Of a stretch of DNA of 64,000 bases, positions 1,267 through 53,789 are shown one piece after another (the stretch's first letter is position 1; each line of letters opens with the position of its first letter). Source of the stretch: Planctomycetota bacterium. GTDB taxonomy: Bacteria > Planctomycetota > JAJSAM01 > JAJVHW01. The notes under the pieces are model-generated. The model searched no databases. It was not told the origin of the DNA and saw only the letters and a program-made list of their open reading frames with translations. The stretch is taken from assembly GCA_024277065.1 (NCBI GenBank), contig JAJRVY010000272.1:6767-70766 (forward strand), in the 5' to 3' direction. Made by a program: the position numbers and the translations under genes.

Positions 1267-2679
1267 TCAGCGGCGGCGACGGGATCCGGAGCGCGCGCCG
1301 GAACGGCCCGCTGCGCCGGACTTACCGCGATGCGACGGCCGGCGGGCACCGTGTCCCTGCGGCCCTCCTCGCGACGTCGCACCGTGCGCACCGTGCGCAC
1401 CGTGCGCACCGTGCGCAGCCGGCGACGGGGATGACGAAGACGACGTGCGACGCCGTCCGCCGCCCGCATTCCTCGGCCGACCACCGCTGCGTGGGCGACC
1501 GCCACCGCGCGGCGCGGTGTCGATCTCCTCGCTCTCGAAGCCCGGGTAGCGGCGCTGCTCGATGCTCGCGCCGAGCATGCGCTCGGTGGCGCGCACCCAC
1601 TCCGAGTCCTCGCGCGTCACGAACGTGACGGCCTTGCCGCTCGCGTCGGAGCGGCCCGTGCGGCCGATGCGATGCGTGTACGTCTCGGCGGTGCTCGGCG
1701 GGTCGAAGTTGATGACGTAGTCGATGCCCGCGACGTCCAGGCCGCGCGCGGCGATGTCCGTCGCGACGAGGATCTCGAACGTCCCGTCGCGGAACCCCTT
1801 CATCGCGCGATCACGCTGCGGCTGCGACATGTTGCCCTGCAGCGCGACGGCGTTGTGTCCCTCGCGCACGAGCTGCTGCGCCATGCGCTTGGCGCGATGC
1901 TTGGTGCGCGTGAACACGATGGCCGTGCGGCAGTCGTCCTCGGCGAGAACGCGGTCCAGGAGATCGCGCTTGCGCCCCTGTGACACGGGCCGCAGGAAGT
2001 GCTCGATGCGCTCGGCGGGCGCCGCGGGCGCCAGTTCGACGACGTGCGGCCTGTAGAGGATGCTGTGCGCCAGGTCGCGGACCTCGTTCGGCATCGTCGC
2101 CGAGAAGAGCAGGTTCTGACGATCGCGCGGCAGGGCCGCGAGGATGCGCTTGATACTCGGCAGGAACCCCATGTCGAACATGTGGTCCGCCTCGTCGAGC
2201 ACGAGCGTCTCGACCTCGGACAGATCGAGCTTGCGCTGCTGCAGGAGGTCGAGCACGCGCCCGGGGCAACCGACCACGATCTCGGGCCGGCCGCGCAGGG
2301 TCTGGATCTGCTTGTGCGCCGAGACGCCGCCGAAGATCGTCATCGACTTGATCCGGGTGTGCTTGGCGAGCATGCGGATCTCGGTGTCGATCTGGAGCGC
2401 GAGCTCGCGCGTCGGCGCCAGGATGAGGACGAGCGGGCCCTGGCCCGGCTCCTCGATCAGGCGCTGCAGGATGGGCAGCGCGAAGGCGGCGGTCTTGCCG
2501 GTTCCGGTCTGGGCGAGGCCCATGACGTCGCGGCCTTCGAGACAGGCGGGGATCGTGTCGTTCTGGATGGGACGCGGCTCCCTGAAGCCGGCATCGGCGA
2601 CGGCGCGCGTCAGCGCGCCGTCGAGACGGAAGCGGTCGAAGCCGCCCTCCGTCCGTGCGGGGGTTCGTGTACTGGACAG
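1267..2679 (-). CDS. DEAD-box ATP-dependent RNA helicase (RhlE-like) with an RGG/HGA-rich C-terminal tail.
   Basis: Q-motif (GFREPRPIQ), AQTGTGKT, DEAD, SAT and HRIGRTGR motifs are all present. The frame is open from the stop at 2710 with no ATG/GTG/TTG before the Q-motif. The only candidate start is CTG at 2677-2679, preceded by GGCGGAG 7 nt upstream. Confidence 0.85.
   Translation of the reverse strand: MSSTRTPARTEGGFDRFRLDGALTRAVADAGFREPRPIQNDTIPACLEGRDVMGLAQTGTGKTAAFALPILQRLIEEPGQGPLVLILAPTRELALQIDTEIRMLAKHTRIKSMTIFGGVSAHKQIQTLRGRPEIVVGCPGRVLDLLQQRKLDLSEVETLVLDEADHMFDMGFLPSIKRILAALPRDRQNLLFSATMPNEVRDLAHSILYRPHVVELAPAAPAERIEHFLRPVSQGRKRDLLDRVLAEDDCRTAIVFTRTKHRAKRMAQQLVREGHNAVALQGNMSQPQRDRAMKGFRDGTFEILVATDIAARGLDVAGIDYVINFDPPSTAETYTHRIGRTGRSDASGKAVTFVTREDSEWVRATERMLGASIEQRRYPGFESEEIDTAPRGGGRPRSGGRPRNAGGGRRRTSSSSSPSPAAHGAHGAHGAHGATSRGGPQGHGARRPSHRGKSGAAGRSGARSGSRRRR
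1378..1418. repeat. 9-bp tandem repeat (CGCACCGTG) x4.5 inside the helicase tail, encoding (HGA)n.
   Basis: Four perfect 9-mers at 1378-1413 plus a partial copy. The 9-mer is exactly 3 codons, so copy-number change stays in frame. Confidence 0.8.
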
Positions 2680-3109
2680 GTGTCTTCTCCGCCGTGCAGG
2701 CGCATGGGCTCAGGACGAGAACGCGTGGGCCCCACGTGGCACGGTCGTTGCATCCGGCCCGTACAACAGAGACGGGCAGGATAGGGGTGGTGGGCGGCGC
2801 GATCTCGATCGCCTGGCGAGAGATCCTGTTGTTCGCCGCATCGAGCCGCCGCGTCCGAGCGACGCGGCGGGGTTTCATTACTGGGATCGGTATGTAGACG
2901 CCGCGGACTGGAATGCCCAACTCTCCCGAGGGCGCCTCCGCGTTCTCTCGCCCCCCCCCCCGGCGCATCGGTAGGCGCCGAGGACGACGGCGCGTACTCT
3001 CCGCGGCGTATGTCCACGAAGAACACTCACGAGCGCGCGACGACGCACCGGGTCGCACACCGGGTCGCGCACGCACGCACGCCCCCTCGCGCACGACGCG
3101 GAGCGACGT

Positions 3110-4955
3110 CGTGAGCGCCGCCGTCGCCTTCGTCATCACGGACGTCCTGAAGCGCTACGCCGGCACGACCGTACTCGAGCATGCGAGCGTCTCCATCCAC
3201 GAGCGCAGCAAGGTCGGCATCATCGGACGCAACGGCGCCGGTAAGTCCACGCTCATCCGCCTGCTGCTCGGACAGGAGGAGCCGGACGACGGCACGATCA
3301 TCTCTGCCGACGGCCTGCGCATCGGCTACCTCGAGCAACACGATGCATTCTCGCTGGGCGAGACGGCGGGCGCCTTCCTCGAGCGGCACACCGGTCGCGA
3401 GGAATGGCGCTGCGGGCAGGTGGCCCACAAGCTGGGCCTGACTCCCGAGAACCTCGCGACGACGATGGGCGAACTGTCCGGCGGCTATCGCACGCGCGTG
3501 AAGCTCGCGGCGATGCTGCTCGCGGACCCCGACTTCCTCGTGCTCGACGAGCCGACGAACTTCCTCGACCTCTCGACCGTGCTGCTGCTGCAGGACTTCC
3601 TGGCAGGTTTCCGCGGCGGCGTGCTGGTCGTCTCCCACGACCGCGAGTTCCTGCGGGCATCGTGCGACCACACGCTGCTCGTCGAGCGCGGCGGTCTCAC
3701 GCTCTATCCCGGCGACATCGAGGAGTTCTTCGTCTGGAAGGCCGAGCAACTGGACCTGGCCCGGCGCACCAACGCCGCCGTGGACACCAGGCGCAAGCAC
3801 CTGCAGTCGTTCGTCGACCGCTTCGGCGCCAAGGCGTCCAAGGCGGCGCAGGCGAAGAGCAAGCGGCGCCAGATCGAACGCCTGCAGCCGGTGACCATCG
3901 CCAACCCGCTCGCCACCGCCCGCGTGCACATCCCGCGGGCGGGAGGGCGCCCGGGTCTCGCCATCGCCGCCGAGAACGTCGCGATCGGCTATCCCGGCCG
4001 CACCATCGCGACCGGCGTCGATCTGATGATCGACCGCGGCGACAAGATCGCCATCGTCGGGGACAACGGCCAGGGCAAGACGACGCTGCTGCGAACGCTC
4101 GCGTCCGACCTGGACGTAGTCTCCGGCAGTGTGCGCCGCGGGCACGACACCGGGATCAGCTACTACGCGCAGCACGTCTACCAGGCTCTGGACGCGAGCG
4201 ACACCATCTACGGGCACCTCGAACGCTGTGCGCCCCGCGACGTCTCGCGGCAGCAGGTCCTCGCCATGGCGGGCTCGCTGCTGTTCCGCGGCGACGATGT
4301 CCTGAAGCGCATCGCGGTCCTGTCCGGCGGAGAGCGCGCGCGCGTCTGCCTGGCGGGTCTGCTGCTGGCACGCAAGCCGGTGTTGATCCTCGACGAGCCC
4401 ACGAACCACCTGGACTTCGAGACCGTCGAGGCGCTCGGCGCAGCGCTCCGCGAGTTCGACGGAGCCGTGCTCTTCGTCAGCCACGATCGAACGTTCGTGA
4501 ACATGGCGGCGACGCACATCGTGGAGGTCGATCAGGGTCGCGTGCGACGCCTGTCCGGCACGTACGCGGACTACGTCGAGGAACTCCAGGTGCGCGCCCG
4601 CCGGACGTCCGCGCCGACGCGGCACGGCACAGGTCGTCGCGACGGTGCCGCCCTCCGGCAGCGACCGCGCGCGGCGAGCAACGCCGCAGAGACCGCCGCG
4701 CTGACGCCCAAGCAACTCCACGCCGAGACACGGCGCCGCAAGAACGCGCGTCAGAGCGCGGAGCGCAAGCTGCGCGAGATCGAACGGCGGATGGCGCAGT
4801 TCGAGGCGCAAAGGGCCGAGTTGCACGCGCGCATCGCCGCGAGCGCCGGCGACCGCGACCTCTACTCGCAACTCGCCGAGGTCGAAGACCGTCTCGCCGT
4901 CGTCGAGCCGGAGTGGATCGAGGTCTCGTCGCTTCTGGAGTCGCTGCCGACCTGA
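3110..4955 (+). CDS. ABC-F family ATPase with two nucleotide-binding domains and a C-terminal coiled coil (Uup/EttA-like translation factor class).
   Basis: Two Walker A motifs (GRNGAGKST, GDNGQGKTT) and two ABC signatures (LSGGYRTRV, LSGGERARV). No transmembrane domain. Likely GTG start at 3110; the ORF-track start at 2913 adds an R/P-rich leader. Confidence 0.85.
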
Positions 4956-6232: not shown

Positions 6233-7312
6233 ATGGTACCCTCCCCCGCCGTGAGACTCCGACCTGTCGCCGTGCCGCTCCTCCTCCTCGCCGCCTGCGG
6301 TGCGTCGGGGCCGGCGCCGGTGCAGCGGCCGCCGCAGCCGGGGGACCTGCCGGACGAGACAGAGTTCCTGGCGCAGGTCGATCGCAGCCGGGGCACGCGC
6401 GACTGCTTCGCCGTCATCCGCGACCCGGTGTTCGTGCGCGCCACGGGCCGCCACGGCATCGCGGACGACGAGATCGTCATGGGTGTCGATCTCGGGACCA
6501 CGCAGGTGGCGTATCCGATCCAGCTCCTCAACTTCCACGAGATCGTGGAGCACACGACCCAGGGACTGGATCTGCTGGCGTGCTGGTGACCGCTCTGCCG
6601 GACGGGCGTCGTGCACGTCCGCGAGGTGAACGGCCGCTCGTTGCGTTTCGGGCACCGCGGCTGGCTCTGGAACAACGCGTTCCTGCTCTACGACAAGGAG
6701 ACGGACAGCATCTGGCACCACCTGACGGGCTGGGCGATGTCCGGTCCGCTGCGCGGTGCGTCCCTGCCGCGCTTCCCGACCGTACAGACGACGTTCGCCG
6801 CCTGGCGCGCGGAGTATCCCGCGACCCTCGTGCTCCCCAAGCCCGCGGGTGACGAGCGCCCGCTCGATCGCGACGTCTACGCGGGCCGCAACTCGGGACT
6901 CGCCTTCGGCCTCGGCGTGGACCTGCCGCAGGCGTTCAGGTTGTACCCGTTCGAGGCGCTCGCCGCGGCCGGCGGCGTCGTCACGGAGACCGTGGGCGAG
7001 ATGGCGCTGGTCGTCGCGCTGGACCCGGTCGCGCGCAGCGCGTTCGCCTACGAGAGCCGCACGGACGGCGACGATCTCGACCTGGTGCTCGTCGCGAACG
7101 CGGAACAGGGACCCGTGCTGCGTGAGCGCGACGGCAGACGCGCGTGGCGCCTGCGGAGCGGCAGGCCCGCGCCGGGATCGGGTGCCGGCACGCGTCTGCG
7201 GCCTCTCCTCGCAAGCCCCTGGGAGACCTTCGCCTGGCGCCGCCAACATCCTGCCGGGACCGTCTGGCCGGCGTCCGCGGAGGGCTCCGGTGTCCCCGCC
7301 GAGGGACGCTGA
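6233..7312 (+). CDS. DUF3179-family lipoprotein with an in-frame TGA (6587-6589) at the first Cys of the conserved CPLC motif. Candidate selenoprotein (W-U-P-L-C).
   Basis: Track ORFs 6233..6589 and 6611..7312 are in the same frame and separated by a single TGA. Both halves carry DUF3179 hallmarks (HEIVEHT...LLACW[TGA]PLCRTGVV...LRFGHRGWLWNNAFLLYDKETDSIWHHLTG). Lipobox LLLAAC near the N-terminus. Confidence 0.6.
6599..6621 (+). promoter_or_regulatory. Candidate SECIS-like stem-loop 9 nt downstream of the in-frame UGA.
   Basis: CGGACG / CGUCCG 6-bp stem with an 11-nt loop (GGCGUCGUGCA) that could add 2 further bp. Confidence 0.3.
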
Positions 7313-7443: not shown

Positions 7444-8163
7444 ATGTTCAAGCGACTGGCGGTCCTGACACTCACGGCGCTCGTCTCCGCGACGTTCATC
7501 GCGCCGACCGTGTTCGCCGGCAACGACGCCGAGAAGAACAAGCTGAACCGCGAGAAGGTGCGCGCCAAGTACACAGAGGACAGGGGCGGGTTCGCGTACT
7601 ACGACCTCGTCTACTGGGTGGACGTCGCCAAGCTCGAGGACAGCCGCTGGTCCGTCCAGGCGCTGCGCGAACCGAAGCACGACCGCGGCCTGCAGCTCTA
7701 CGCGAACTGGGTCAACACGGCCAACGCGGAGGGCATGAACATCAAGGTCTTCGGCTACAAGTTCCTCCACGAAGAGCGCGAAGGCAGCATCCGGCGCCCG
7801 TTCTCGTACCCCTTCAACAACCTCGGCGAGTCGGTGCGCTGCTCCGACATGAAGGGCATGCTCGAGGGCTTCTACGAGGACTGGAAGCGCGGCGCGTCCG
7901 ACGTGATCGAGGACCAGTGCGAGAAGCCGAAGAAATCGAAGTTCAAGATCCCCAAGATGCAGGCCGCCGCCGTGGGCACGGACCCCGAGCTGAAACAGCG
8001 CGTGCGCCGTGAGTGGTATGCTTGGAGCAACGGCAAGCAGATGTCCACGTACATCATCGAGATCCGCTACGGCCCAGCGCTCTACAACCGGGAAGGGCTC
8101 GTCGCCAAGGGCGCCGAGTTCGTCAAGAACCTCAAGGAGATCAAGGACAAGGTCAAGTGGTAG
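7444..8163 (+). CDS. Secreted Lys-rich hypothetical protein (239 aa) with a signal peptide.
   Basis: AGGAGG 6 nt before the ATG. Signal peptide MFKRLAVLTLTALVSATFIAPTVFA. Lower local GC but high GC3. Two tandem hairpins follow the stop. Confidence 0.7.
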   Translation: MFKRLAVLTLTALVSATFIAPTVFAGNDAEKNKLNREKVRAKYTEDRGGFAYYDLVYWVDVAKLEDSRWSVQALREPKHDRGLQLYANWVNTANAEGMNIKVFGYKFLHEEREGSIRRPFSYPFNNLGESVRCSDMKGMLEGFYEDWKRGASDVIEDQCEKPKKSKFKIPKMQAAAVGTDPELKQRVRREWYAWSNGKQMSTYIIEIRYGPALYNREGLVAKGAEFVKNLKEIKDKVKW

Positions 8164-8276: not shown

Positions 8277-9281
8277 ATGCAGACCGCCAAGAGCGCCGAC
8301 ACCACGCAGGCCGATCGTGTGCGCGGGCCCGATGGTGGCTATCCTCCGCGTCCCGTGGAGACCGTGTCCGTCCTGCAACTCGACAAGTCGTTCGGCGACG
8401 TCCGCGCGCTGCGTGAACTGACCGTCGATTTCCCGGCCGGCGCCGTGGGTCTCCTGGGCCCCAACGGCGCGGGCAAGTCGACGCTCCTCAAGATCCTGCT
8501 GGGGCTCTTGCCGGCGGACGGCGGCTCAGCCTCGGTGCTCGGACGCGACGTGCGGCGCGACCCCCTCGAAGTGCGGCGCGTGGCGGGCTACATGCCCGAG
8601 ATCGATGCCTACGTCCCGGGGCTGACGGGCGCCGAGTCCGTCGTCTTCTGCGGCGTGCTCTGCGGACTGCCGCGGCGCATCGCGCAGCAGCGCGCGCATG
8701 AGATCCTCTACTACGTCGGGCTGGCCGAGTCCCGCTACAGGCGCGTCGAGCAGTACTCGACGGGCATGCGGCAACGACTGCGCCTGGCGCAGGCGCTCGT
8801 CCACGACCCGGGCCTCATCTTCCTCGACGAGCCGACCAACGGACTCGATCCCGACGGCCGCGACGAGGTGCTCGCGCTGATCGAGGATCTGGCCACGAAC
8901 CACGGCAAGAGCATCGTGCTCTGTTCGCACCTGCTGCACGACGTCGAGGCGGTCTGCGAGCACGTCATCGTGCTGCGCGAGGGCGCCATCGCCCTCGAGG
9001 GCTCGGTGGACGAGGTCCGCAAGCTCGAGCGCGGCACCTTCCACGTGCGCATCTCGGGAGACCTCGAGGCATTCCTCGGGGCAGCGCAGCGCGGTGGACT
9101 GAGCGCGGAACGTCACGACGCCGAGATGCTGCGCGTGCGCGTTCCCGACGGCGCCGGCGCGCACGAGATCTTCGGCGCCGCGCGCGCCGCGAACTGCGCC
9201 GTGCGCTCACTCTCGACGGTCGAGCAGTCGCTCGAGGGCGTGTTCATCCGCGCGGTGTGCGACGTGAAGGGCGGCGACTGA
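8277..9281 (+). CDS. ABC transporter ATP-binding protein (ABC-2/NatA-like) with a C-terminal extension.
   Basis: Walker A GPNGAGKST, signature YSTGMRQRL and Walker B LIFLDEP. Confidence 0.85.
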   Translation: MQTAKSADTTQADRVRGPDGGYPPRPVETVSVLQLDKSFGDVRALRELTVDFPAGAVGLLGPNGAGKSTLLKILLGLLPADGGSASVLGRDVRRDPLEVRRVAGYMPEIDAYVPGLTGAESVVFCGVLCGLPRRIAQQRAHEILYYVGLAESRYRRVEQYSTGMRQRLRLAQALVHDPGLIFLDEPTNGLDPDGRDEVLALIEDLATNHGKSIVLCSHLLHDVEAVCEHVIVLREGAIALEGSVDEVRKLERGTFHVRISGDLEAFLGAAQRGGLSAERHDAEMLRVRVPDGAGAHEIFGAARAANCAVRSLSTVEQSLEGVFIRAVCDVKGGD

Positions 9282-10219
9282 TGCCCGTCTTCGAACAGGG
9301 CTATCGGCCGTTCGAAGGCGAGCTCGCGCGGCGCTCCCCCGTCCCGGCCGCCGTCTGGCACAACGTGCGCACGCGGCTGCGCTGGTGGATCTGGGTACTC
9401 ACGGCGGGGCTCCTGATGTATCCGTATGTCGTCTGGGGTGTGGCCGTCTTCCTGTTCACGGCCGGCCAGGCGCTGTTCGGCATCACGCCGCCCGGCGGCA
9501 TGGCGACCGTCCCACGCTTCGCCTACGAATCGGCCGGCGACCCCGACCCGACGAAGTTGCTGGCGATGCTCACTGCGAGTTCACCACGCGGAGCCCTCGC
9601 CCTCTACTGGACGATCCTCGAGCAGGCGTCGCTCGCGGCCATCGTGCTCCCGGCGGTCGCCTGCGGGGGCATCCTGGCCTCGGATCGCGCCACAGGTGCG
9701 ATGCAGATCTACTTCGCGCGCCCGGTCACGCGCTTCCAGTACCTGCTCTCGAAGATCCTCACCGTGTCGTGCTTCACGGCGCTCGTGACCTCCCTGCCCA
9801 CACTGTTCATCTGGGGCGAGACCGTGGCCTTCCACCCGGATGGAGACTTCCTGCTGCGCACGTGGATGGCGCCACTGTCCATCATCGGCGCGGGTCTCTT
9901 CTACGCGCTGTGGTCGTCGTCCATCGTGCTTGCTCTGTCGAGCGTGTTGCGACGCCCGGCACTGGCCTCGATCTGCGCCATCTTCGGCTACTTCCTGCTG
10001 CGCTACATCGGCTTCCTGGTGTCGAGCAGCCTGGACGACAAGACCTGGCGCCTGCTCGATCCGCACTACGCACTGGGCGGCATCGTCGCGCCGCTGTTCG
10101 GTCTCGAGCTCCCGGACTGGCTGGCAACGCCCTGGCTGCCGGTGCCATCGCTCCTCGTGCCGCTCGCCCTGCTGTTCTTCGTGTGGACCCGCGTCCGGGC
10201 CGTCGAGGTGACGACGTGA
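9281..10219 (+). CDS. ABC-2 type transporter permease (6 TM).
   Basis: TGATG stop/start overlap with the upstream ATPase. Multiple hydrophobic helices. Confidence 0.7.
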   Translation: MPVFEQGYRPFEGELARRSPVPAAVWHNVRTRLRWWIWVLTAGLLMYPYVVWGVAVFLFTAGQALFGITPPGGMATVPRFAYESAGDPDPTKLLAMLTASSPRGALALYWTILEQASLAAIVLPAVACGGILASDRATGAMQIYFARPVTRFQYLLSKILTVSCFTALVTSLPTLFIWGETVAFHPDGDFLLRTWMAPLSIIGAGLFYALWSSSIVLALSSVLRRPALASICAIFGYFLLRYIGFLVSSSLDDKTWRLLDPHYALGGIVAPLFGLELPDWLATPWLPVPSLLVPLALLFFVWTRVRAVEVTT

Positions 10220-11184
10220 GCGAGCAGGCGCGCCCACCGGTCATCCACGTCGAACGCCTCACGAGGTCGTACGGCGCGGTCGTGGCGATCAACGACATCT
10301 CCCTCGACGTCGCCGGGGGCGTGATCGGCCTGCTCGGCCCCAACGGCGCGGGCAAGTCCACGCTGCTGAAGACGCTGACGGGGGAGCTGCGGCCGGGCAT
10401 GGGCGACGTCACGGTGCTCGGCATGGCGCCCTTCGCCAACCCGGACCTGTACGCGCGCATCGGGATCTGCCCGGAGCAGGACGCGCTGTTCGAGGACATG
10501 ACGGCGCGCGAATTCATGTCGTTCCTGCTGCGGTTGCGCGGGCTCGAGAGCCGCGTCGCGCGCGACCGCGCGGACGCGTGGATCGAGCGCATGGGCCTCA
10601 CGGACGCGCGCAACCGACGCCTGCGCGGCTTCTCGAAGGGCATGCGCCAGCGCACGAAGCTGTGTACGGCGTTCGCCCACGAGCCGGAACTGCTGTTCCT
10701 CGACGAGCCGCTGACAGGGCTCGACCCGCTCTGGCGCCACCACGTGCAGGAGCTGGTGCGCGAGCGGGCGCGGGCGGGGGCGACCGTGCTGTTCTCGTCG
10801 CACGTCCTGCACGAGGTCGAGCAGGTGACGCACGAGGTCGTGCTGCTGCACCGCGGCCGCGTCGCCGCGCAGGGGGACGCGCGCGAGATCCGCGCGCTGA
10901 TCGACCGCGTGCCGCACCGCGTCGAGGTGCTCGCGACGCGTCCACGACACGTGGCCGTCATGCTCGCCGGCTGGGAGTGCGTCGAGAGCGTCCGCGTGCA
11001 CGAGGCGGGCGTGGACGTCACGACCCCGCGCCCCGACCTCTTCTACGCGTTGCTCACGGAGGCGTGCGCGGACGACGACCTCGGCGTGCAGGGTCTCAGC
11101 AGTCCCGACGACAGCCTGCAGGCACTGTTCGACACGCTCGTGAACGCGCGGCCCGAACGCACGCGGCGGAGGGCCGCGTCATGA
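10216..11184 (+). CDS. ABC transporter ATP-binding protein (second ABC-2 ATPase).
   Basis: GTGA start overlaps the permease stop. Walker A GPNGAGKST, signature FSKGMRQRT and LLFLDEP. Confidence 0.85.
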   Translation: MSEQARPPVIHVERLTRSYGAVVAINDISLDVAGGVIGLLGPNGAGKSTLLKTLTGELRPGMGDVTVLGMAPFANPDLYARIGICPEQDALFEDMTAREFMSFLLRLRGLESRVARDRADAWIERMGLTDARNRRLRGFSKGMRQRTKLCTAFAHEPELLFLDEPLTGLDPLWRHHVQELVRERARAGATVLFSSHVLHEVEQVTHEVVLLHRGRVAAQGDAREIRALIDRVPHRVEVLATRPRHVAVMLAGWECVESVRVHEAGVDVTTPRPDLFYALLTEACADDDLGVQGLSSPDDSLQALFDTLVNARPERTRRRAAS

Positions 11185-12050
11185 GCGCGGGGCACGCGAG
11201 CGGCTCCTCGCAGCCCCCGGAGTCCTCGGGGGCGGTGGGGGCGGCGCCCCCACCGCTGCGCCGGCTCGACGCCGTCGAGAGCGTCTATCAGGTCACTCTG
11301 CTGACGCTGCGGCGCACACTGCGCGGCAAGCGCATGCTCTGGATCGCAGCCCTCCTGGCGTTGCCGTGCATCCTGGCATGGTCGGTCGCGCGCGGTCTCG
11401 ATCCCGAACGCCAGGAGAGGTTCTTCTACGAGACGCTGGTCTTCTACCAGTTCGGGATCGCGGTGCCGTCCGTGGCGCTGCTGATGGCCACGGCGTTCCC
11501 CTGGCCCGAGAGCGACGAGGGTTCGCTGACCTACTGGTTCACGGCGCCGGTGCGGCGCTGGACCGTGCACCTCGGCCGCACGCTGGCCTCTCTCGCCATC
11601 GGCGCCATCGTCCTGCCCGTCGCCGTGCTCGCGCTGGCGCTGCCGCTCGATCCCGGCGACAGCGTCGAGCTCGCGGGGCCCGTGCGCACGGCGGTGACGG
11701 CGACGCTGCTCGCGTTCCCGGCCTACCTCGCGGTGTTCTCCTTGCTGTGCACGTGGCTGCGGCGAGGACTCATCGGCGGCGTGTTCCTGATCCTCGTCGA
11801 GAACTCGCTGTCGCTCGTCACCGGCAACCTCGCGAAACTGACCGTCGTGTACTACGTACGCTCGATCCTGTGGCCGGCCACGTCACTGCTCGGGCGCCGC
11901 GTCCTCGAGAACGCGGCGCGCATCGACGACCCGGCGTCGTCCGCGACCGCCATCACGGTCTTCGTCGCCGTGACGATCGTCGCCCTCGGCATCGCGATGG
12001 TGCTCGTCGAGGTGCTGGAGTACCGCGGCAAGCACGCCCAGCCGGGTTAG
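11181..12050 (+). CDS. ABC-2 type transporter permease (second).
   Basis: ATGA overlap with the upstream ATPase. Hydrophobic multi-TM protein. Confidence 0.65.
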   Translation: MSAGHASGSSQPPESSGAVGAAPPPLRRLDAVESVYQVTLLTLRRTLRGKRMLWIAALLALPCILAWSVARGLDPERQERFFYETLVFYQFGIAVPSVALLMATAFPWPESDEGSLTYWFTAPVRRWTVHLGRTLASLAIGAIVLPVAVLALALPLDPGDSVELAGPVRTAVTATLLAFPAYLAVFSLLCTWLRRGLIGGVFLILVENSLSLVTGNLAKLTVVYYVRSILWPATSLLGRRVLENAARIDDPASSATAITVFVAVTIVALGIAMVLVEVLEYRGKHAQPG

Positions 12051-12117
12051 CCTGCGCGGGTGCGGCGGCCGGCCTCGGAGCCGGGCCGCGGCAGGGACAT
12101 GCCCGGGAGACGCGAAC

Positions 12118-13536
12118 GTGGAGAGCGAACAGAGCCCGCCCCCGATTCCCCTCACGCCCCTGCGCATCGATCGCAGCGTGCGCAGGCGCCGCCGCACGTG
12201 GCTGCGGTGGACGATCGTGCTCGTCCTGCTGCTCGCCGTCGTCGCCGTGATCGCCGGGCCGCTGCGCAGCACGCTCTTCCCGCTGCGCGTCACGACCGCC
12301 GTGGTCACACGCTTGGCGGCGACCCAGGGCGCCGTGCGCACGACCGCCAGCGGCTATGTCCTCGCGCGGCACCGGGCGGCGATCTCCAGCCGGCTCTCGG
12401 GGCGGCTCGAGACGCTGCTCGTCGATGTCGGGGACCACGTCGAGAAGGACCAGCTCCTGGGGCGCCTGGGCCAGGCGGATCTGGTCGCGGCCGTGGCGGA
12501 AGCGCAGGCGGCCCTCGCGCAGGCGCGCCTCGAGGTGCCGGTGCTCGAGCGCCGCATCGACGTCGCCGTGGCGGCGGTGGCGACCACGAAGGGACGACTC
12601 GGGCAGATCGAGGCCGCGGTCGGTACGGCGCGCGACCGCCTCACCGAGGCCGAGCGCGTCGTGGCACTCGAGGAGCGTCTCGTGGAGACGGGCAGCTCGT
12701 CGCAGGACGCGGTGGACGCGAGCCGCGCGGACCGCGACATCCGGGCCACCGAGCTACGCGTGGCGACGGCAGCCGTGGGGGCCGCCCGCGCCGAGGTCGC
12801 CGAACGGCAGCAGGACGTCGGTGTCCTGCGCGCGCAGATCGAGTCGGCCCGCGCCGGCGTGCAGGCCGCCGAAGCGGCGCTGACGCGCGCCGAGGCGCTG
12901 CGCGCGGACGCCGACATCAGGGCCCCGTTCGCCGGCGTCGTGCTCCGCAAGGAAGCCGAGATCGGCGAGATGGTCTCCCCTGTCAACGCCGCGGGCAGCA
13001 CGACACGCGGCGCCATCGTGACCATCGCCGACTTCGCCTCGCTGGAGATGGAAGTGGACGTCATCGAGCGCGACATCGGCGAGGTCGCCGAGGGCATGCC
13101 CTGTCGCATCGTCCTCGACGCGCGTGACGGCCCGTACGCCGGACACGTGCGCCAGGTCGTGCCCACCGCCGATCGCACACGCGGCACGGTTCAGGTGAAG
13201 GTCGCCTTCGATGCGCTGGACGATCGCGTGCTCCCGGAGATGAGCGGGCGCGTCGAGTTCCTCGCGATGGGCGCGGAGGATGTCGTGCTCGGGGCGGACC
13301 GCGTTCTTGTCGATGAGCGCGCGCTGGTCGCAGTACCGGACTCCTGGCAGGTGTGGGTGGTGCGCGACGGAAGCGTGCACCGCACGCACGTGGAACTCGT
13401 GAGCGGCGAGGCACCGAGCGGCAAGCGCGAGGTCGCAAGCGGGCTGCGCGGCGGCGAGGAAGTCGTGCTCTCCCCGTCCACGGACCTCACCGACGGCGCG
13501 GCCGTCACGGCGCAACCCGCGGGAGACGCACCCTGA
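12118..13536 (+). CDS. HlyD/MacA-family periplasmic adaptor (membrane fusion protein).
   Basis: N-terminal TM anchor, long coiled-coil region, and a lipoyl/beta-barrel C-terminal half (..IRAPFAGVV..). Confidence 0.8.
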   Translation: MESEQSPPPIPLTPLRIDRSVRRRRRTWLRWTIVLVLLLAVVAVIAGPLRSTLFPLRVTTAVVTRLAATQGAVRTTASGYVLARHRAAISSRLSGRLETLLVDVGDHVEKDQLLGRLGQADLVAAVAEAQAALAQARLEVPVLERRIDVAVAAVATTKGRLGQIEAAVGTARDRLTEAERVVALEERLVETGSSSQDAVDASRADRDIRATELRVATAAVGAARAEVAERQQDVGVLRAQIESARAGVQAAEAALTRAEALRADADIRAPFAGVVLRKEAEIGEMVSPVNAAGSTTRGAIVTIADFASLEMEVDVIERDIGEVAEGMPCRIVLDARDGPYAGHVRQVVPTADRTRGTVQVKVAFDALDDRVLPEMSGRVEFLAMGAEDVVLGADRVLVDERALVAVPDSWQVWVVRDGSVHRTHVELVSGEAPSGKREVASGLRGGEEVVLSPSTDLTDGAAVTAQPAGDAP

Positions 13537-14222
13537 TGCTGATCGAGGCCCGGGGCGTCGTGAAGACGTACACGCGTGGCGATCAGGAGCTCTGCGTGCT
13601 CGACGACCTGGATCTGGACGTCGGCGACGGCGAATGGGTGGCGCTGATGGGCCCCAGCTGCAGCGGCAAGACGACGCTGCTCAACCTGATCGGCGGACTC
13701 GATGTTCCGGACGCCGGCTCCATCCGCGCGGGCGGGGACGAGATCGTGGGCCGCAGCGCGGCGGACCTGGCGGCGTGGCGCGCGCGGCACGTCGGGTTCA
13801 TCTTCCAACTCTACAACCTGCTGCCGGTCCTGACCGCGTGGCAGAACGTCGAGTTGCCGCTCCTGCTCGCGCCGCTCACGCGCCGCGAGCGGCGCGAGCA
13901 CGTCGATGTCGCGCTCTCCGTGGTCGGGCTCGCCGACCGCACCGAGCACTTCCCGTCGCAGCTCTCGGGCGGACAGCAGCAGCGCGTGGCGATCGCGCGC
14001 GCCATCGCCACGGACCCCAGCTTCCTCTTGGCCGACGAGCCGACGGGCGACCTCGACGCGAAGAGCGCCGAGGAGATCCTGGGCCTGCTCGGCCGCCTCC
14101 ACACGGACTTCGGCAAGGCCATCGTGATGGTCACGCACGACCCCCACGCCGCGCGCTACGCCGACCGGCTGGTGCACCTCGACAAGGGACGCATCGCGAC
14201 ATCCGAGGCGCTGCGCTCGTGA
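13536..14222 (+). CDS. MacB/LolD-type ABC ATPase.
   Basis: TGATG overlap with the adaptor gene. [23 protein letters not shown] and LLADEPTG motifs. Confidence 0.85.
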
Positions 14223-15382
14223 CGCCCTGGCGGCTGCTTTTAGCACATCTGCGACGGGCCTGGTTCCGCGTGGCGTTGACGGCGGGCGGCGTGGCGCTCG
14301 CCGTCTTCCTGCTCGCGTCACTGCGAACGTTCGTGACGAGCCTCGACGAGACGGTGAAGGCATCCGGCAGCAACCGCGTGATCGTGTCGAGCGCCGTGTC
14401 GCTGTTCGTGTTCCTACCGAGCAGGATCGAGCCCGAGCTGCGCTCGCTGCCGGGTGTCCGGGAGGTGACGCACTGGACGTGGTTCGGCGGCGTGTACGTG
14501 GATCCGAAGAACATGTTCGGCCGCTTCGCGACGGATCCCAACACGTTGCGCAACGTCTACGGCGACCGCTCCCCGAACGACGAGGAGATCGTCCTCACGG
14601 CCGACGAGTGGGACGCCTTCGCGGCCGATCGCGCCGGCTGCGTCGTCGGCGACGGGATCGCCGAGCAGTACGGCTTCCGCGTCGGGGACCAGATCGAACT
14701 GACGGGAACGCTCTTCGAGGGCGACTGGACGTTCAACGTCCGCGGCATCTACCACTCGGGCAGCGCGCAGGTGGACAACGCAACGATGTTCTTCCAGTGG
14801 GAGTACCTCGACGAGAAGTCCGGGCGACGCGGCGAGGTGAGCACGTACACCGTCGATCTGGAGCCCGGCGCGGACCTCGCCGCGATCAGCCGCGCGATCG
14901 ACGCGCGCTTCGAGTCCTCGGACCATCGCACGCGCACGCTGACCGAGGCGGCCTTCAACCAGATGTTCGTCTCGATGTGGGGCAACGTGCCCGTACTGCT
15001 CTCGATGATCGGCGGCGCGGTGCTGTTCGCGGCGTTCATGATCGCGCTGAACACGATGCTCCTGCACGGGCAGGAACGCCGGCTGGAGATCGGCGTGCTC
15101 GAGGCCCTGGGCTTCCCCAGCAGGGTCGTCGCCACGCTGTTCGTCGCCGAAGGCGTCATCGTCTGCGGTCTCGGCGGCCTGGTCGGCGTGGCGGGCGCGC
15201 ACCTGCTCTTCAACACGTTCGGCGTGCCCGCTCTGGAGCGCTTCTTCCCGGCGTTCCGCATCCTGCCCGAGACCGAACTGCTGGCGCTGCTCGTGGCCCT
15301 CGCGGTGGGCGCGGTCAGCGGGGCGATCCCCGCCTGGGTGGCGGTGCGCACGACCGTCGTGGACGCTCTGGCGAAACGCTGA
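14219..15382 (+). CDS. FtsX-like ABC permease (MacB-type, large periplasmic loop).
   Basis: GTGA overlap with the ATPase gene. N-terminal TM, large extracytoplasmic domain and three C-terminal TM helices. Confidence 0.8.
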   Translation: MTPWRLLLAHLRRAWFRVALTAGGVALAVFLLASLRTFVTSLDETVKASGSNRVIVSSAVSLFVFLPSRIEPELRSLPGVREVTHWTWFGGVYVDPKNMFGRFATDPNTLRNVYGDRSPNDEEIVLTADEWDAFAADRAGCVVGDGIAEQYGFRVGDQIELTGTLFEGDWTFNVRGIYHSGSAQVDNATMFFQWEYLDEKSGRRGEVSTYTVDLEPGADLAAISRAIDARFESSDHRTRTLTEAAFNQMFVSMWGNVPVLLSMIGGAVLFAAFMIALNTMLLHGQERRLEIGVLEALGFPSRVVATLFVAEGVIVCGLGGLVGVAGAHLLFNTFGVPALERFFPAFRILPETELLALLVALAVGAVSGAIPAWVAVRTTVVDALAKR

Positions 15383-16548
15383 TGCCGGTCCCCCTCCGCT
15401 ACAACCTGCGCAGTCTGGTCGTGAGGCGAGCCGGCACCCTTCTGAGCATCGCCTCGATCGGGCTGTCCGTCGCCGTGCTGGTCCTCGTGCTCGCGCTGGC
15501 CCGGGGCTTCGAACTGTCACTGGTCGGAACCGGCACCGACGGCAATCTCATCGTGCTGCGCAAGAGCGCCACGAGCGAGGGCGAGAGCGGCCTGCAGCGC
15601 TGGCAGTTCCGGGCGCTCTCGGCGTTCCCGGGCATCGCCGTCGGCGAGACGGGCGCGCCGCTGGCCGCCGCAGAGGTCTACGCGGCGCTCAACCTCGACA
15701 AGTCCGGCGGCGGCAGCGCGAACTTCCCGCTGCGCGGCGTCATGCTCAGCTCGTTTCGCATCCGCGACACCGCGCGCGTGGTCGCCGGCCGGCGCTTCAC
15801 GCCCGGCACGCGCGAGGTCGTCGTCGGCAAGGCGCTGCTGGGGCGCATCGACGGCTGCCGCCTGGGCGGCGCGCTCCAGCTCCAAGGGCAGGACTGGCCG
15901 GTCGTGGGCGTGATCGACTCGGGCGGCAGCGCCTACGACTCGGAGATCTGGTGCGACGTCGAGGTGTTCATGCAGGAGCTCGATCGACCGGTCTACGGCA
16001 TCGCGATCCTGCGCGTCGATGCGCAGATCGAGGGCGGCGCAGGCGCGCTGGCGACGTCCATCGAGGACGACCCGCGCTTCGACGCGAAGGTCATGACGGA
16101 GCCCGCCTACTTCGCCGCGCAGGCCGGCACGCTCGGAGAGGTGCTGCTCTTCACGGGGTACTTCATCGCCGGGATCATGGCCGTGGGCGCCGCGTTCGGA
16201 ACGGCGGTGACGCTGCTCGCTTCGCTCGCGCGGCGCACGCACGAGGTCGGCACGCTGCTGGCCGTCGGCTTCCGGCCACGCGAGATCCTCGCCGGTTTCC
16301 TCGTGGAGTCCCTCGTCCTCGGACTCGCCGGCGGCGTCGTCGGCGTGCTGATCGCGCTGCCGGTCAACGGTGTCGCCACGGGCACGATGAACTGGGACAC
16401 CTTCACCGAACAGGCGTTCGCATTCCGGATCACGCCCGGCGTCGTGATGCGGGCGGTCACGTTCAGCACGATCGTCGGCGTCCTCAGCGGCGTCGTCCCG
16501 GCGTGGAAGGCCGCCGGCCTCCCGCCCAGCGAAGCGCTGCGGCGCTGA
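15382..16548 (+). CDS. FtsX-like ABC permease (second copy).
   Basis: TGATG overlap. Same architecture as the previous gene. Confidence 0.8.
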   Translation: MPVPLRYNLRSLVVRRAGTLLSIASIGLSVAVLVLVLALARGFELSLVGTGTDGNLIVLRKSATSEGESGLQRWQFRALSAFPGIAVGETGAPLAAAEVYAALNLDKSGGGSANFPLRGVMLSSFRIRDTARVVAGRRFTPGTREVVVGKALLGRIDGCRLGGALQLQGQDWPVVGVIDSGGSAYDSEIWCDVEVFMQELDRPVYGIAILRVDAQIEGGAGALATSIEDDPRFDAKVMTEPAYFAAQAGTLGEVLLFTGYFIAGIMAVGAAFGTAVTLLASLARRTHEVGTLLAVGFRPREILAGFLVESLVLGLAGGVVGVLIALPVNGVATGTMNWDTFTEQAFAFRITPGVVMRAVTFSTIVGVLSGVVPAWKAAGLPPSEALRR

Positions 16549-16910: not shown

Positions 16911-17214
16911 CCGCTGGCTCGCGCGGGCAACGGCCGCAACGAACGGGCTCGACGGCGGCCACCCGGTGCTGCGCGGCCGACGCCACTCGTGAGTGCGCTC
17001 TCCCGGGCCACGCCGCGAGGGGCTTCACGTCCTGGTCCACCGCCGCGCAGCGGCCGCTGGTCCACCGTCCGAGGCGGCTCGGCGCGCCTCACACGGCCCC
17101 CGCGAGACCGTGGCCGCGGCCGTGGCCGGCGGCTTCTTGACAGGAAGCCACTCATGGAGTAGGGCCATAGGGGCCGTCGCGCAAGAAGGACGGTCCAGGC
17201 AACGGAGGCGAACG

Positions 17215-20172
17215 ATGGTCTCTCTCCGCTCCATCCCGGTTCTGCTGCCGGCCCTCTTCATCTTGGCCCTCGCGGCGGGGCCGGCCCGGGCCGAGGCGCC
17301 TGCCGAACCATCGCTCGCATTCTCCGAAACACCACCGCTCTCCCGACTGAAGGTCGGAACCCTCACGTCGTCGGGCAGGAGCACGAAGAAGTTCGCCGGC
17401 ACCGGAACGCTCACGTTCCTCGGCGACGTCGAGATCGATCTCGACGTCGTCGCCAGGAACAAGGTGAACAAGAAGCACCCGGCCCGTACGAGGGCCACTT
17501 ACATCCTCAAGTCTCCTCGAGGTGCGCTGCCCCGGGTGAGGGTGAAGTTCGTGATGCGGGGCGGCGCACTCTCCTCCCTCTCCGTGTCGCTCAAGGCCAA
17601 GGTGAAGAACGCGGCCGCCATCGCATCCACGGAACCCGGCGTCTATGAGATTCGGGGCATCCCGCCCCTCCGGGGAATCGACGTCCGCGGCGCCGCTCCG
17701 GTACTCGACCATGGCGAGCACCTCGGGCTGTCGGTGAAGAGCCAGACGGACAGGAAGGGCCGCACCACTCACTCGATCACTTCACGGTCGAAGAGTCCGA
17801 AGGTGAAGGGGAAGCTGACGATCGAAGGCGCGCCAGAGACGGTCGTGAGCGTCAACTTGAAGTACACCCTGTTCAAGAAGGGCCTGGACGGCGTCAGTCT
17901 CCGGACCGGCGCCTTCGCGATCGCGCCGCTCTCCGGCGTCGTCGCGGACGCACCCGGCGTCGTCGAGGTCAGGAACAGCCTGAGCAGTGCACCTGTCGGG
18001 TCCGGCGGCACGTTCACGATCAACGCCTTCGCCGAGGGCCGGCAGCTCGCCATGGGCGCGACATCCGACGGCACGCTCCTTCTCGGCTGGCTGGGAGAGG
18101 GGCGTACGACGCTGAGCGCCCGCAGCACGGCCGAGGTCATGCTCTTCGTGGCCGGTTCGATGTTCACGGTCCCTCTCGACCGCGTGGACACGGTGATCGA
18201 CGAGATCGCTGCATCGCAGCAGGCGGCAGACCTCGCCGTCGAGGTCGAGGCGGCGCTCTGGTCGGGCGCCTCGACGTTCGCGGAGTTGGTCGCAGACGTC
18301 GCGCCGCAGCTCTCCGATCTCACCGACCAACTCATCGCCGACGCCGGTGGGAAGAGCCTCCTGATCGACCCGATCGCGGGCAGCAGCGGCATCGACGTAA
18401 GCGCCGAGGGCTTCCAGAACGTCGTGATCACGAACTACTACCGCCGCCGCGCGCACGCTTTCATCCAGCGGCTCGGTCACACGCCCGAAGACGGGATCGG
18501 CTTCATCCAGGACGAGGCGGACCTCACGGATGTCGTGATCTCTCCCTCTCCGGGGATCAGTTCGGTGATCGGACTCCTCATCAGTCTCGGCAGCGGCGCC
18601 TACACGCCCGTCGAGAAGGGACCGTTCACGCTGCCGCTGACCCCCGACCGCGCGAGCTCGACCCTATACAAGGTCACGGTGGTGGGACTCGGCTTCTCGC
18701 AGGGAGACTTCGGCCAGCTGAATCAGACGCAGCGTACGTGGCACGCGCGCGTCGCCATCGAGACGATCGTACTCGATATCATCGGCCCCTGGCTGGCTGC
18801 GGCGGCGCTCCCGAGCGGCCCCCAGCAGGGGATGCAGCAGGTGGGTATTCGAATCGCCGGAGGCGGCGGGTTCGACAGGTTCACGGCCGAACTGCTCGTC
18901 GCCGTGCCTCTCGCCGCCGAGCAGGCCGCGGGCGGTGACTTCACCGGCGCCATCGGGGGGATACTCACCGCCTTGAACACCGACGACACGCTCACGACCC
19001 TGTTCACCGTCGCGCTCGCCGGGGCGGTGGAGAACGTGCTCGGCAAGGGAGCGGCCGAGGGAGTCACGGGTTTCATGGCCAAGTTCGCGCTCGAGGTACT
19101 GGCGCCTCTGGACATCAGCCTGAAGATCACCGACACCGTGGTCCAAGGTCTCCATATCGCGAAATCCAACAACGCGGACGTCTGGAACGTGGAGGTCACC
19201 AGCGCCAAGGTCTCGCTCGTACCCGAGTTCGAGATCGTCCGGAACACCAGCGGGCGGGTGGATCAGCCGGTCTTCGAGGCGATCGTCCAGGACGGCGAGG
19301 AACTGAACCTCACGTACAAGTGGTCGTGCGGCGACAAGGGCCGGATCGGCGACACCAAGGGCCACTTCGGCACGGAGTTCGAGTCCAGCGACGGGCAGGT
19401 CGTCTTCACTCCCGACGTCGGCGCCGAGGGAACCACTCACGTCACGGTCGAGGTGGAAGAGATCGTCGGCAGCGGTCGGAGACCGATCGGCAAGGCCAGA
19501 GCCAAGGTCGAGATCATCCGCCGCACCGTCCTCATCATCGAGCGGAAGGCATCGCTTGCCCCGAATGAGAGCAGGGACTTCGAAGTGCGCGTCGATCCAC
19601 CCGTCACCGACGGCACAGTCTTCTATCGCTGGAGCGGAACCGAGGACTTCGGACAGGCGGACGCCGCATTCGGCGAGGACACGAGCGACACGATCGTGAA
19701 CTACGTCGCCGGCGACGCAGAGGGGACGGACTCGCTTCACTGCGAGGCATTCCTCGTTCGCAACGGTCAGACCGAGTCGCTCGGCAAGGCAGACGGCGAG
19801 ATTCGCGTCGAGTTGCGCAAGAGCATCATCCTGGGCACCTACGTGTACGACGTGGTGGCCGTCACGGAAAACACCACATGTGGCGCCGCTCGGTGCCGGG
19901 TCGCCATCCCCGATGGCGCGATTCGTCTCGACCTGCGAGCCTACGGCCACACTGACCCCTCCTTCCACGGAAGCGAGATCAACAAGTCCGCCGTCCGGCT
20001 GGGCGACGGACGCTGGCGCTTCGGTTCGACGACCAACTCGCCGGACGACGCGTTCTGGAACCTGTCCGGGCTCTGTAGTAGTAGCGCGGAGAGCGTGACC
20101 GATGCGAAAGCCGTCTATGACGGCCGATTCGCCGCTTTCATCTACGAGATCGAGGTCACCTACGAGGAATGA
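17215..20172 (+). CDS. Large secreted protein (about 985 aa) of unknown function.
   Basis: GGAGG before ATG 17215. Signal peptide MVSLRSIPVLLPALFILALAAGPARA. No recognisable domain, few Cys, Lys-rich N-terminal module, about 60 % GC. The ORF-track start at 16993 adds R-rich junk. Confidence 0.75.
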   Translation: MVSLRSIPVLLPALFILALAAGPARAEAPAEPSLAFSETPPLSRLKVGTLTSSGRSTKKFAGTGTLTFLGDVEIDLDVVARNKVNKKHPARTRATYILKSPRGALPRVRVKFVMRGGALSSLSVSLKAKVKNAAAIASTEPGVYEIRGIPPLRGIDVRGAAPVLDHGEHLGLSVKSQTDRKGRTTHSITSRSKSPKVKGKLTIEGAPETVVSVNLKYTLFKKGLDGVSLRTGAFAIAPLSGVVADAPGVVEVRNSLSSAPVGSGGTFTINAFAEGRQLAMGATSDGTLLLGWLGEGRTTLSARSTAEVMLFVAGSMFTVPLDRVDTVIDEIAASQQAADLAVEVEAALWSGASTFAELVADVAPQLSDLTDQLIADAGGKSLLIDPIAGSSGIDVSAEGFQNVVITNYYRRRAHAFIQRLGHTPEDGIGFIQDEADLTDVVISPSPGISSVIGLLISLGSGAYTPVEKGPFTLPLTPDRASSTLYKVTVVGLGFSQGDFGQLNQTQRTWHARVAIETIVLDIIGPWLAAAALPSGPQQGMQQVGIRIAGGGGFDRFTAELLVAVPLAAEQAAGGDFTGAIGGILTALNTDDTLTTLFTVALAGAVENVLGKGAAEGVTGFMAKFALEVLAPLDISLKITDTVVQGLHIAKSNNADVWNVEVTSAKVSLVPEFEIVRNTSGRVDQPVFEAIVQDGEELNLTYKWSCGDKGRIGDTKGHFGTEFESSDGQVVFTPDVGAEGTTHVTVEVEEIVGSGRRPIGKARAKVEIIRRTVLIIERKASLAPNESRDFEVRVDPPVTDGTVFYRWSGTEDFGQADAAFGEDTSDTIVNYVAGDAEGTDSLHCEAFLVRNGQTESLGKADGEIRVELRKSIILGTYVYDVVAVTENTTCGAARCRVAIPDGAIRLDLRAYGHTDPSFHGSEINKSAVRLGDGRWRFGSTTNSPDDAFWNLSGLCSSSAESVTDAKAVYDGRFAAFIYEIEVTYEE

Positions 20173-39339: not shown

Positions 39340-39390
39340 GCACTTCGTTCTAGTCCACCCCGGCACTGCGACGTACCGTTCTCCGGTCCC

Positions 39391-53400: not shown

Positions 53401-53637
53401 ACGTCGCGGCGCCCCGCCGCGTCGCCGGCCGCCCGGCGCGCCACGAACGAGCTGTCGGATCGCCAGCGCCGCGTGCTCCAGATCCTCGCCGAACAGGAGT
53501 GGCTGACGAACACCGAGTACTGCGAGCTCGTCGGGATCTCGACACGCACCGGTCTGCGCGATCTCAAGGAGCTCATCGAACGTGGGCTCGTCGCCATGGA
53601 AGGCAAGCGCCGCGGCGCACGCTACCGCCTGCGCTGA
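50488..53637 (+). pseudogene. Sigma54-dependent transcriptional activator (TM sensor, GAF, degenerate GGDEF, AAA+ and HTH domains) interrupted by an in-frame TAA at 53299-53301.
   Basis: [23 protein letters not shown] and WPGNVR[TAA]LRNALEQAVVL. The stop replaces the Glu of the RELxN motif. The downstream same-frame ORF 53329..53637 carries the HTH (LTNTEYCELVGISTRTGLRDL). Confidence 0.7.
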
Positions 53638-53789
53638 CGTCGCATACGCCCGCGAGTTGCAGAAGGTCGCCCGTGGGAGGGCGAATTGGGTAGTCTTGCG
53701 ACATCGTCCGCGCATGTTCGCAGCATGGAACGTCCGCGCCGCCGCTGCGGCGCAGGACACGCGCGGACGCCGACCAGGAGGAAAACGGT

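Follow-up and report, generated by a model that had tools for sequence, protein, structure and literature searches.

The 64,000-nucleotide stretch of the Planctomycetota contig JAJRVY010000272.1 analyzed here, hereafter the window, carries at positions 6233-7312 of the forward strand a gene that very likely encodes a lipid-anchored extracytoplasmic protein of the DUF3179 family, in which the UGA codon at 6587-6589 is decoded as selenocysteine (Sec). The gene is called as two separate open reading frames (ORFs); however, both parts share a single frame and a single DUF3179 domain, the TGA takes the place of a cysteine that is invariant in Cys-form homologs, it is conserved among related loci together with a covarying hairpin downstream, and the codons on both sides of it are under selection. 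A predicted fold, an internal duplication and a conserved gene order complete the observed features. The mechanism would be ordinary bacterial Sec decoding and leaves the knowledge of this process unchanged; the gene and its relatives stand in public calls as two 'hypothetical' ORFs.

The reading frame and the conservation of its UGA codon

The two ORFs called on the forward strand occupy 6233..6589 (118 aa, ATG start) and 6611..7312 (233 aa, GTG start). Translated in one frame, the whole interval comprises 359 codons with the TGA as the sole internal stop, in the context GLDLLACW-TGA-PLCRTGVVHVR, which bears out the initial annotation of two same-frame ORFs divided by one TGA. The DUF3179 hallmarks that had been noticed on both halves belong to one domain: when Cys is substituted for the stop, the Pfam model DUF3179 (PF11376) matches residues 57-340 as one unbroken match spanning the TGA (E=1.6e-48; 166.1 bits vs. 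a cut-off of 27; profile positions 2-290 of 292), that is, above the gathering score and over most of the model. NCBIfam has no model for DUF3179. The family motif [TW][FYW]-C-P-L-C is present in the window as C-W-U-P-L-C, with its first Cys codon changed to TGA, and [FYW]C[PA]LC was found in 70 of 80 genome loci among the matches listed. The N-terminal sequence MVPSPAVRLRPVAVPLLLLAAC-G looks like a lipoprotein signal peptide, in which an n-region with Arg and a hydrophobic stretch precede the lipobox L-A-A-C. The lipobox, which was also part of the initial annotation, agrees with the bacterial pattern [LVI][ASTVI][GAS]C as a pattern match only; its Cys column (Cys22) is kept in most Sec-form and Cys-form orthologs in a 16-sequence alignment, and we infer that this residue is lipidated.

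Homologs of the protein fall in two classes, namely full-length proteins of 334-349 aa with an intact motif (ACWCPLCGTG) vs. about 15 short ones of 217-236 aa, whose match to the query is confined to its C-terminal 61-65% and which begin at the first Met or Val past the motif. The loci of four short homologs (L001, L002, L004, and L006) contain N- and C-terminal DUF3179 fragments in one frame, divided by a single TGA at the identical column (CW-TGA-PLCRTG). Five further Sec-form loci (L087-L091) were retrieved by a metagenome DNA pattern for W-TGA-P-L-C-R-T-G-V-V-H, an earlier DNA pattern (HEIVEH...CW-TGA-PL) having found no match in metagenomes, and L097 is one additional Sec-form locus. Distant relatives with about 33% identity are likewise split, by TW-TGA-PLCRTA in L092 and L093 and by TW-TGA-SYCNTA in L094. 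Including the window, the TGA thus occupies the identical column in 14 independent assemblies with 33-65% protein identity. Every Cys form in the 16-sequence alignment has Cys at this column (residue 119), the distant TFCPLC and TYCPLC variants among them, and C122 is invariant too. The suggestion that the TGA lies at the first Cys of CPLC therefore holds for every Cys form, and the in-frame UGA and the Cys of the homologs make up a Sec/Cys pair. A scan of the genome collection with the protein alignment covered Cys forms only, because it used one back-translated pattern demanding a Cys codon.

The closest Cys-form orthologs (P0002-P0008; loci L095 and L096) are 50-54% identical to the window protein and resemble it in lipobox, length and downstream gene. 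Two of them, P0006 and P0005, are followed by the same adjacent gene of about 245 aa, and P0006 (L095) has in addition the full cluster of transporter genes, i.e., the ABC/MacB operon of the window. They differ by TGC or TGT in place of TGA, by Glu, Asp or Gly allowed after His, and by the loss of 1-3 of the 7 pairs of the hairpin described below. As a separate observation, many Sec-form orthologs of the clade share a C-terminal tail VPxxGR directly before the stop codon (7286-7309 in the window, forward strand; also L001, L004, P0009, and P0010), with the variants SGVPAEGR, APVPDRGR, RGVPGGGR, APVPGGGR, and GGVPNRGR, whereas the Cys-form orthologs end in WRRP.

The part of the gene past the TGA is constrained as a protein. 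Ratios of nonsynonymous to synonymous substitution rates (dN/dS, Nei-Gojobori method; 10 pairs among five Sec-form orthologs) range from 0.24 to 0.49 in the N-terminal half and from 0.34 to 0.60 in the C-terminal half, and the latter values point to protein-level selection on the post-TGA part. A scan based on G+C content at third codon positions (GC3), which looks for a coding signal continuing in frame across a stop, flagged only the TGA at 6587-6589 in the window and only the orthologous TGA in four sister loci, and flagged nothing in two Cys-form loci. Other same-frame ORF pairs in the window, 27526-28056/28057-28959 and 48007-50487/50488-53301/53302-53637, are divided by TAG or TAA rather than TGA and were rejected as candidates.

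Truncated gene calls are widespread among the homologs. Among the best 150 representative clusters (50% identity, C-terminal half as query), 89 begin 1-25 residues past the Cys/Sec column, 70 of these exactly 7-8 residues past it, and 42 have an intact CxxC; this tally infers Sec forms from truncated calls and is biased to the subfamily of the query, and the TGA itself was seen directly in the 14 loci. Since the truncated form dominates, DUF3179 selenoproteins appear to be systematically mis-annotated and are probably under-counted. Eleven of the 150 clusters cover the motif region without a recognizable [FYW]CxxC (P0160, P0168, P0208, P0213, P0232, P0236, P0281, P0287, and others); they could be variants with other motifs, such as the 'UxxT'-type partners mentioned in reviews, or mis-calls.

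Two readings without any decoding of the UGA were weighed against these data. The first takes the gene for a nonsense pseudogene, or the TGA for a sequencing or assembly error, so that a Cys codon has been changed to TGA and the gene is dead or misread: TGA is one base away from TGC and TGT, the contig was assembled from a metagenome, a second gene in the window has an unexplained in-frame stop (TAA 53299-53301), and no Sec machinery is encoded within the window. However, the identical column is TGA in all 14 independently assembled loci, the 240 codons past it are open, conserved and under purifying selection, truncated calls starting right past the motif dominate the best 150 clusters, and the sister loci do not come from the organism of the window, as their cysteinyl-tRNA synthetases (CysRS) are only 66-74% identical to its own. 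We regard this reading as highly improbable. According to the second, the locus would make two polypeptides, namely a lipoprotein of 118 aa that stops at the TGA and an independently initiated protein of 233 aa from GTG 6611, as public gene calls have it in every Sec-form locus. Against it, the seven codons from the TGA to the annotated GTG start encode in frame the family motif P-L-C-R-T-G-V, of which P-L-C-R-T-G is invariant; the 233-aa product would have no signal peptide despite forming one fold unit with the lipoprotein part; the first repeat module of the domain would be divided between the two products; and the Cys-form orthologs are single proteins. Such a split is hardly credible. The pseudogene, assembly-error and split-gene readings are rejected because of the conservation of the TGA, the selection acting past it, the GC3 scan, the motif codons and the role of TGA as the usual stop in the window, where it ends 26 of the 40 GC3-supported ORFs. 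The interval 6233-7312 is, in our reading, one gene for an exported lipoprotein, very probably with Sec at the UGA, which gene callers divide in two.

The candidate selenocysteine insertion sequence

A hairpin immediately 3' of the UGA provides the comparative evidence for a selenocysteine insertion sequence (SECIS). In all 14 Sec-form loci the minimum free energy (MFE) fold contains a hairpin of 7-8 bp beginning 13 nt past the UGA, with energies of -9.8 to -16.8 kcal/mol for the hairpin alone. The RNAalifold consensus comprises the same 7 bp, and in an ungapped, codon-registered alignment of the 14 loci 94% of the cells of the hairpin are paired. Two pairs covary, one of them (columns 20/32) occurring as GU, GC or CG and the other (columns 21/31) as CG, UA or AU; none of 500 shuffles matched the covariation score or the paired fraction of the hairpin, and slid registers were all far worse. 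The compensatory changes exchange amino acids, pairing Gly-GGC with Val-GUC or Ala-GCC, Gly-GGA with Ser-UCC, and Ala-GCU with Ser-AGC, and in L094 this offset is occupied by a 7-bp stem of unrelated sequence (CGGCCCU...AGGGCCG). In contrast, the Cys-form controls L095, L096, and L007 share the peptide T-G-V-V-H yet break 3, 1, and 2 of the 7 pairs, respectively, and Cys forms tolerate Glu, Asp or Gly at the codon that makes the 3' arm. A possible lower stem, which reaches the base right after the UGA, has 70% of its cells paired across the loci.

The initial annotation had proposed a different 6-bp stem, 6599-6604/6616-6621, at SECIS-like spacing. That stem is present in the window, but its register is wrong and conservation is lacking: of its two central pairs, one is open in 9 and the other in 8 of the 14 sequences, and it shows no covariation, 323 of 500 shuffles scoring as high. 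This stem is not supported as the SECIS. The conserved hairpin, 6603-6609/6615-6621, lies four bases 3' of it and uses the same 3' arm. The apical loop of the conserved hairpin, about 20 nt past the UGA and containing G/U, has a spacing that we take to fit the bacterial SECIS model of bSECISearch. Like bacterial SECIS elements of the Escherichia coli fdhF type, the hairpin lies in the coding region just 3' of the UGA, possibly with a longer lower stem starting right after the UGA; it shows no sequence similarity to them and has no match to an Rfam covariance model.

The predicted decoding follows the standard bacterial pathway. The hairpin would act as a bacterial SECIS element during translation and recruit SelB carrying Sec-tRNA(Sec); the ribosome would insert Sec and read on through the remaining 240 codons. 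In the mature protein, a β-rich module would occur twice in tandem, with U119-P-L-C122 replacing C-P-L-C in copy one, and the U/C pair would form a redox-active selenol/thiol couple or possibly a pair of soft-metal ligands.

Selenocysteine decoding, lineage and earlier reports

The initial proposal that the TGA encodes Sec in the U-P-L-C motif of a DUF3179 lipoprotein is supported as the most likely interpretation by the TGA column in 14 loci, by selection on both halves, by Cys-form orthologs in the same operon and by the covarying hairpin. A competing interpretation accepts read-through and dispenses with selenium: the UGA would be read by near-cognate insertion of Trp or Cys, or would be reassigned in this lineage, giving a full-length protein without Sec. 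Read-through is clearly needed for the conserved C-terminal two thirds, and no genes for Sec machinery were found in the window and the sister loci. However, the frequency of TGA as a terminator in the window indicates that UGA is not reassigned, a UGA at an invariant Cys is the signature of Sec/Cys pairs, a conserved covarying hairpin follows it at SECIS spacing, and DUF3179 is already catalogued as a selenoprotein family. We therefore consider read-through without Sec unlikely and retain Sec decoding.

Several results weigh against Sec decoding or limit its support. Neither selA, selB, selD nor a tRNA-Sec gene was found within the 64-kb window or about 95 kb of sister loci; the window contains no tRNA genes, and Pfam scans of 39 GC3-supported ORFs over the 64 kb gave no SelA, SelB, or SelD. 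The GC3 scan yielded no second selenoprotein candidate in the window. Folding downstream of the TGA recovered the hairpin in the MFE fold, but with an energy like that of shuffled sequences: the 48-nt region of the window, whose sequence has 71% G+C, folds no better than its dinucleotide shuffles (z=-0.03; 97 of 200 as stable), and fold stability by itself is therefore not evidence. The hairpin region has no Rfam match at either gathering or permissive thresholds, covariation is limited to 2 of the 7 pairs among related sequences, coding constraint on T-G-V-V-H explains part of the conservation, and the Cys-form controls for the hairpin number three only. The available sections of the literature on the family contain no experimental demonstration of selenium incorporation. 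With respect to the Rieske/NirD-like fold described below, an hhalign comparison of DUF3179 with a Rieske/NirD alignment of authentic PDB sequences was not significant (0.35% probability), and the proposal on function draws on fold and context only. A 95-nt ARAGORN call in L004 (483-577, forward strand), 'tRNA-Gly (ccc)', was rejected as a tRNA-Sec candidate; it is antisense within a CHAT-domain gene, has no tRNA support from Rfam, and is judged to be a G+C-rich false positive.

The lineage of the Sec-form loci was traced with CysRS. The closest named relatives of the window CysRS occur in Planctomycetota metagenome-assembled genomes (MAGs; 56-65% identity), the orthologs on the L001, L004, and L006 contigs are 74%, 73%, and 66% identical to it, and the L001 contig is labeled as a Planctomycetota bin. 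These identities between Sec-form contigs indicate that the TGA has persisted across considerable divergence in an uncultured Planctomycetota clade.

The initial annotation further suggested that DUF3179 might be a new selenoprotein family, which does not stand because the family is already catalogued. In the sections available, a 'DUF3179 domain-containing protein' (pfam11376, UxxC/T, MBW1804167.1) is listed by 'Selenium Metabolism and Selenoproteins in Prokaryotes', a review of 2022 (PMC9312934), and a 2026 review lists DUF3179 as well (PF11376, UxxC/T, MDJ0986319.1; PMC13188914); both credit the study by Zhang and Gladyshev (Nucleic Acids Res, 2007; PMC1976440) on the symbionts of Olavius algarvensis, a paper whose accessible text names YHS, a putative redox protein, OS_HP1-3, and COG1810 as new families. 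The gene described here is a new member, from Planctomycetota, of the known DUF3179 selenoproteins. It shares with them the Pfam family, Sec in UxxC at the conserved Cys and the existence of Cys-form homologs; the members of 2007 came, as far as those sections state, from the Olavius symbiont metagenome, whereas the window member belongs to an uncultured Planctomycetota lineage. The words 'periplasm', 'lipoprotein', 'signal peptide', and 'secreted' do not occur in the 2026 review (PMC13188914), and the available sections of the two reviews and the 2007 paper make no mention of a lipobox, operon, fold or SECIS covariation of DUF3179. The exported lipoprotein nature, the Rieske-like fold, the duplication, the operon and the apparent prevalence of the Sec form may thus be undescribed, as judged from these sections.

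Fold, gene neighborhood and possible function

The pairing of Sec with Cys at one conserved column points to U/CxxC as the functional center of DUF3179. The protein was represented by an AlphaFold2 model of the Cys-form ortholog P0006 (pLDDT 91, pTM 0.87), standing in for the window protein. The model contains a Rieske/NirD-like domain of about 90-100 residues, for which Foldseek found local agreement with probabilities of 0.95-0.99, and the modeled β-fold is Rieske-like. The Rieske ligand set CxH...CxxH is lacking, the window protein has no Pfam Rieske match, and a search of PDB sequences by family profile yielded nothing beyond chance matches. The alignment shows one CxxC/UxxC only, and His102 is not invariant; the UxxC corresponds to Rieske box II (C-P-x-H) when matched by eye and to box I in hhalign, and the two assignments disagree. 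Judged from the model, the likeness of DUF3179 to Rieske proteins is confined to the fold and does not extend to family membership. Compared with Rieske [2Fe-2S] domains and the cluster-less NirD small subunits (3c0d, 2qpz, 3gce, and 1vm9), it has two such modules with insertions, and CxxC/UxxC instead of the CxH...CxxH set. DUF3179 is an internal tandem duplication, the N- and C-terminal halves of the family alignment matching each other in hhalign with 99.4% probability (E=1.4e-21). The coordinates of the repeats and of the other features are collected in Table 1.

Table 1. Features of the DUF3179 locus in the window.
Feature	Position	Strand	Description
Full DUF3179 gene, predicted selenoprotein	6233..7312	+	359 codons, predicted Sec at codon 119; called as two ORFs
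Signal peptide and lipobox L-A-A-C	6233..6298	+	Pattern-based; putative lipidated Cys22 at 6296-6298
DUF3179 repeat 1	6470..6832	+	Residues ~80-200; bears U-P-L-C
In-frame UGA, predicted Sec codon	6587..6589	+	Residue 119, position 1 of U-P-L-C
Possible lower SECIS stem	6590..6633	+	6590-6599 with 6625-6633; in the MFE fold of the window, weakly supported
Cys122 codon, partner of Sec in UxxC	6596..6598	+	Invariant column C122
Candidate SECIS hairpin	6603..6621	+	CGGGCGU / loop CGUGC / ACGUCCG; 13 nt past UGA
DUF3179 repeat 2	6902..7264	+	Residues ~224-344; without Cys motif, 'DPVA' at the U-P-L-C position
Downstream partner gene	7444..8163	+	239 aa, Lys-rich, with signal peptide; counterparts of ~245 aa come directly after DUF3179 in all Sec-form and Cys-form loci
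Transporter genes	8277..16548	+	Pfam; two ABC ATPase and ABC-2 permease pairs, HlyD-type membrane fusion protein, MacB-type ATPase, two MacB/FtsX permeases

Gene order is kept in Sec-form and Cys-form loci, in which DUF3179 is followed by the protein of about 245 aa and by transporter genes; the full downstream order is the same in L001, L002, L004, L006, and L095. The 239-aa partner in the window has no Pfam or NCBIfam match, and the composition of its gene is atypical for the genome (G+C of 0.57 and 0.38 at codon positions 1 and 2, respectively). Upstream synteny is partly kept among L002, L004, and L006, which share a CofH/MqnE-like radical SAM gene, an unknown 339-aa protein and ThiS-MoaE, unlike the window, where the upstream neighbor is an ABC-F ATPase (2913-4955). 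Clustering of flanking ORFs in 80 loci produced mostly antisense noise in these genomes of high G+C; the only clear signals were a pair of extracytoplasmic function (ECF) sigma and anti-sigma genes, a disulfide oxidoreductase and a thioredoxin fusion. Among the matches listed, a class-I pyridine-nucleotide disulfide oxidoreductase adjoins DUF3179 in 9 of the 80 loci, and ECF sigma and anti-sigma genes adjoin it in 12 and 5, respectively.

A TlpA/ResA-like thioredoxin domain (WCxxC) is fused N-terminally to DUF3179 in P0024 from Acetothermia (FWATWCAPC) and in L085 from a Methanosarcinales MAG (2404-3846, forward strand; FWASWCTPC), which hints at thiol-disulfide chemistry. Extracytoplasmic thiol:disulfide oxidoreductase selenoproteins of the DsbA/TlpA type, which the same reviews list, share with DUF3179 a redox-type UxxC/CxxU motif in an exported protein, and a TlpA-like domain is the fusion partner of DUF3179 in some lineages; however, the DUF3179 fold is not thioredoxin-like. 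Together, the fusions, the disulfide oxidoreductase neighbor and the Sec/Cys pair would favor, with less certainty than the Sec assignment itself, an extracytoplasmic thiol/selenol redox role, the U/CxxC possibly being a soft-metal ligand site instead. With similar reserve, the U/C site may act in an extracytoplasmic setting alongside the secreted 239-aa protein conserved with it and the ABC/MacB exporters.

The Rieske/NirD-like fold, the duplication, the thioredoxin fusions and the exporter operon provide concrete hypotheses on the function of DUF3179. As a tentative proposal, which we consider possible but on balance doubtful, DUF3179 may be a duplicated extracytoplasmic module that descends from the Rieske fold and has a C/U-x-x-C site for redox chemistry or soft-metal binding where the cluster region used to be. 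Its members in the Planctomycetota clade would be selenoproteins anchored by a lipid and working with a secreted partner of their own and with ABC/MacB exporters, and the Sec form would prevail in the subfamily. If true, this would amount to an exported selenoenzyme, tethered to the membrane, whose fold had no earlier link to selenium.

Two further observations concern other parts of the window. Three large ORFs on the forward strand with strong coding signal, 16993-20172, 39268-43062, and 53694-55253 (1059, 1264, and 519 aa, respectively), have no family match save a sub-threshold DUF748 for the second. At 50488-53637, also on the forward strand, a gene for a sigma-54-dependent activator is broken by the in-frame TAA mentioned above; positions 1-47 of Pfam AAA_lid_14 end just before this stop, and positions 49-82 resume just after it, followed by a helix-turn-helix (HTH) domain. 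Being TAA and not TGA, this stop was excluded as a Sec candidate; a nonsense mutation or an assembly error is its probable origin.

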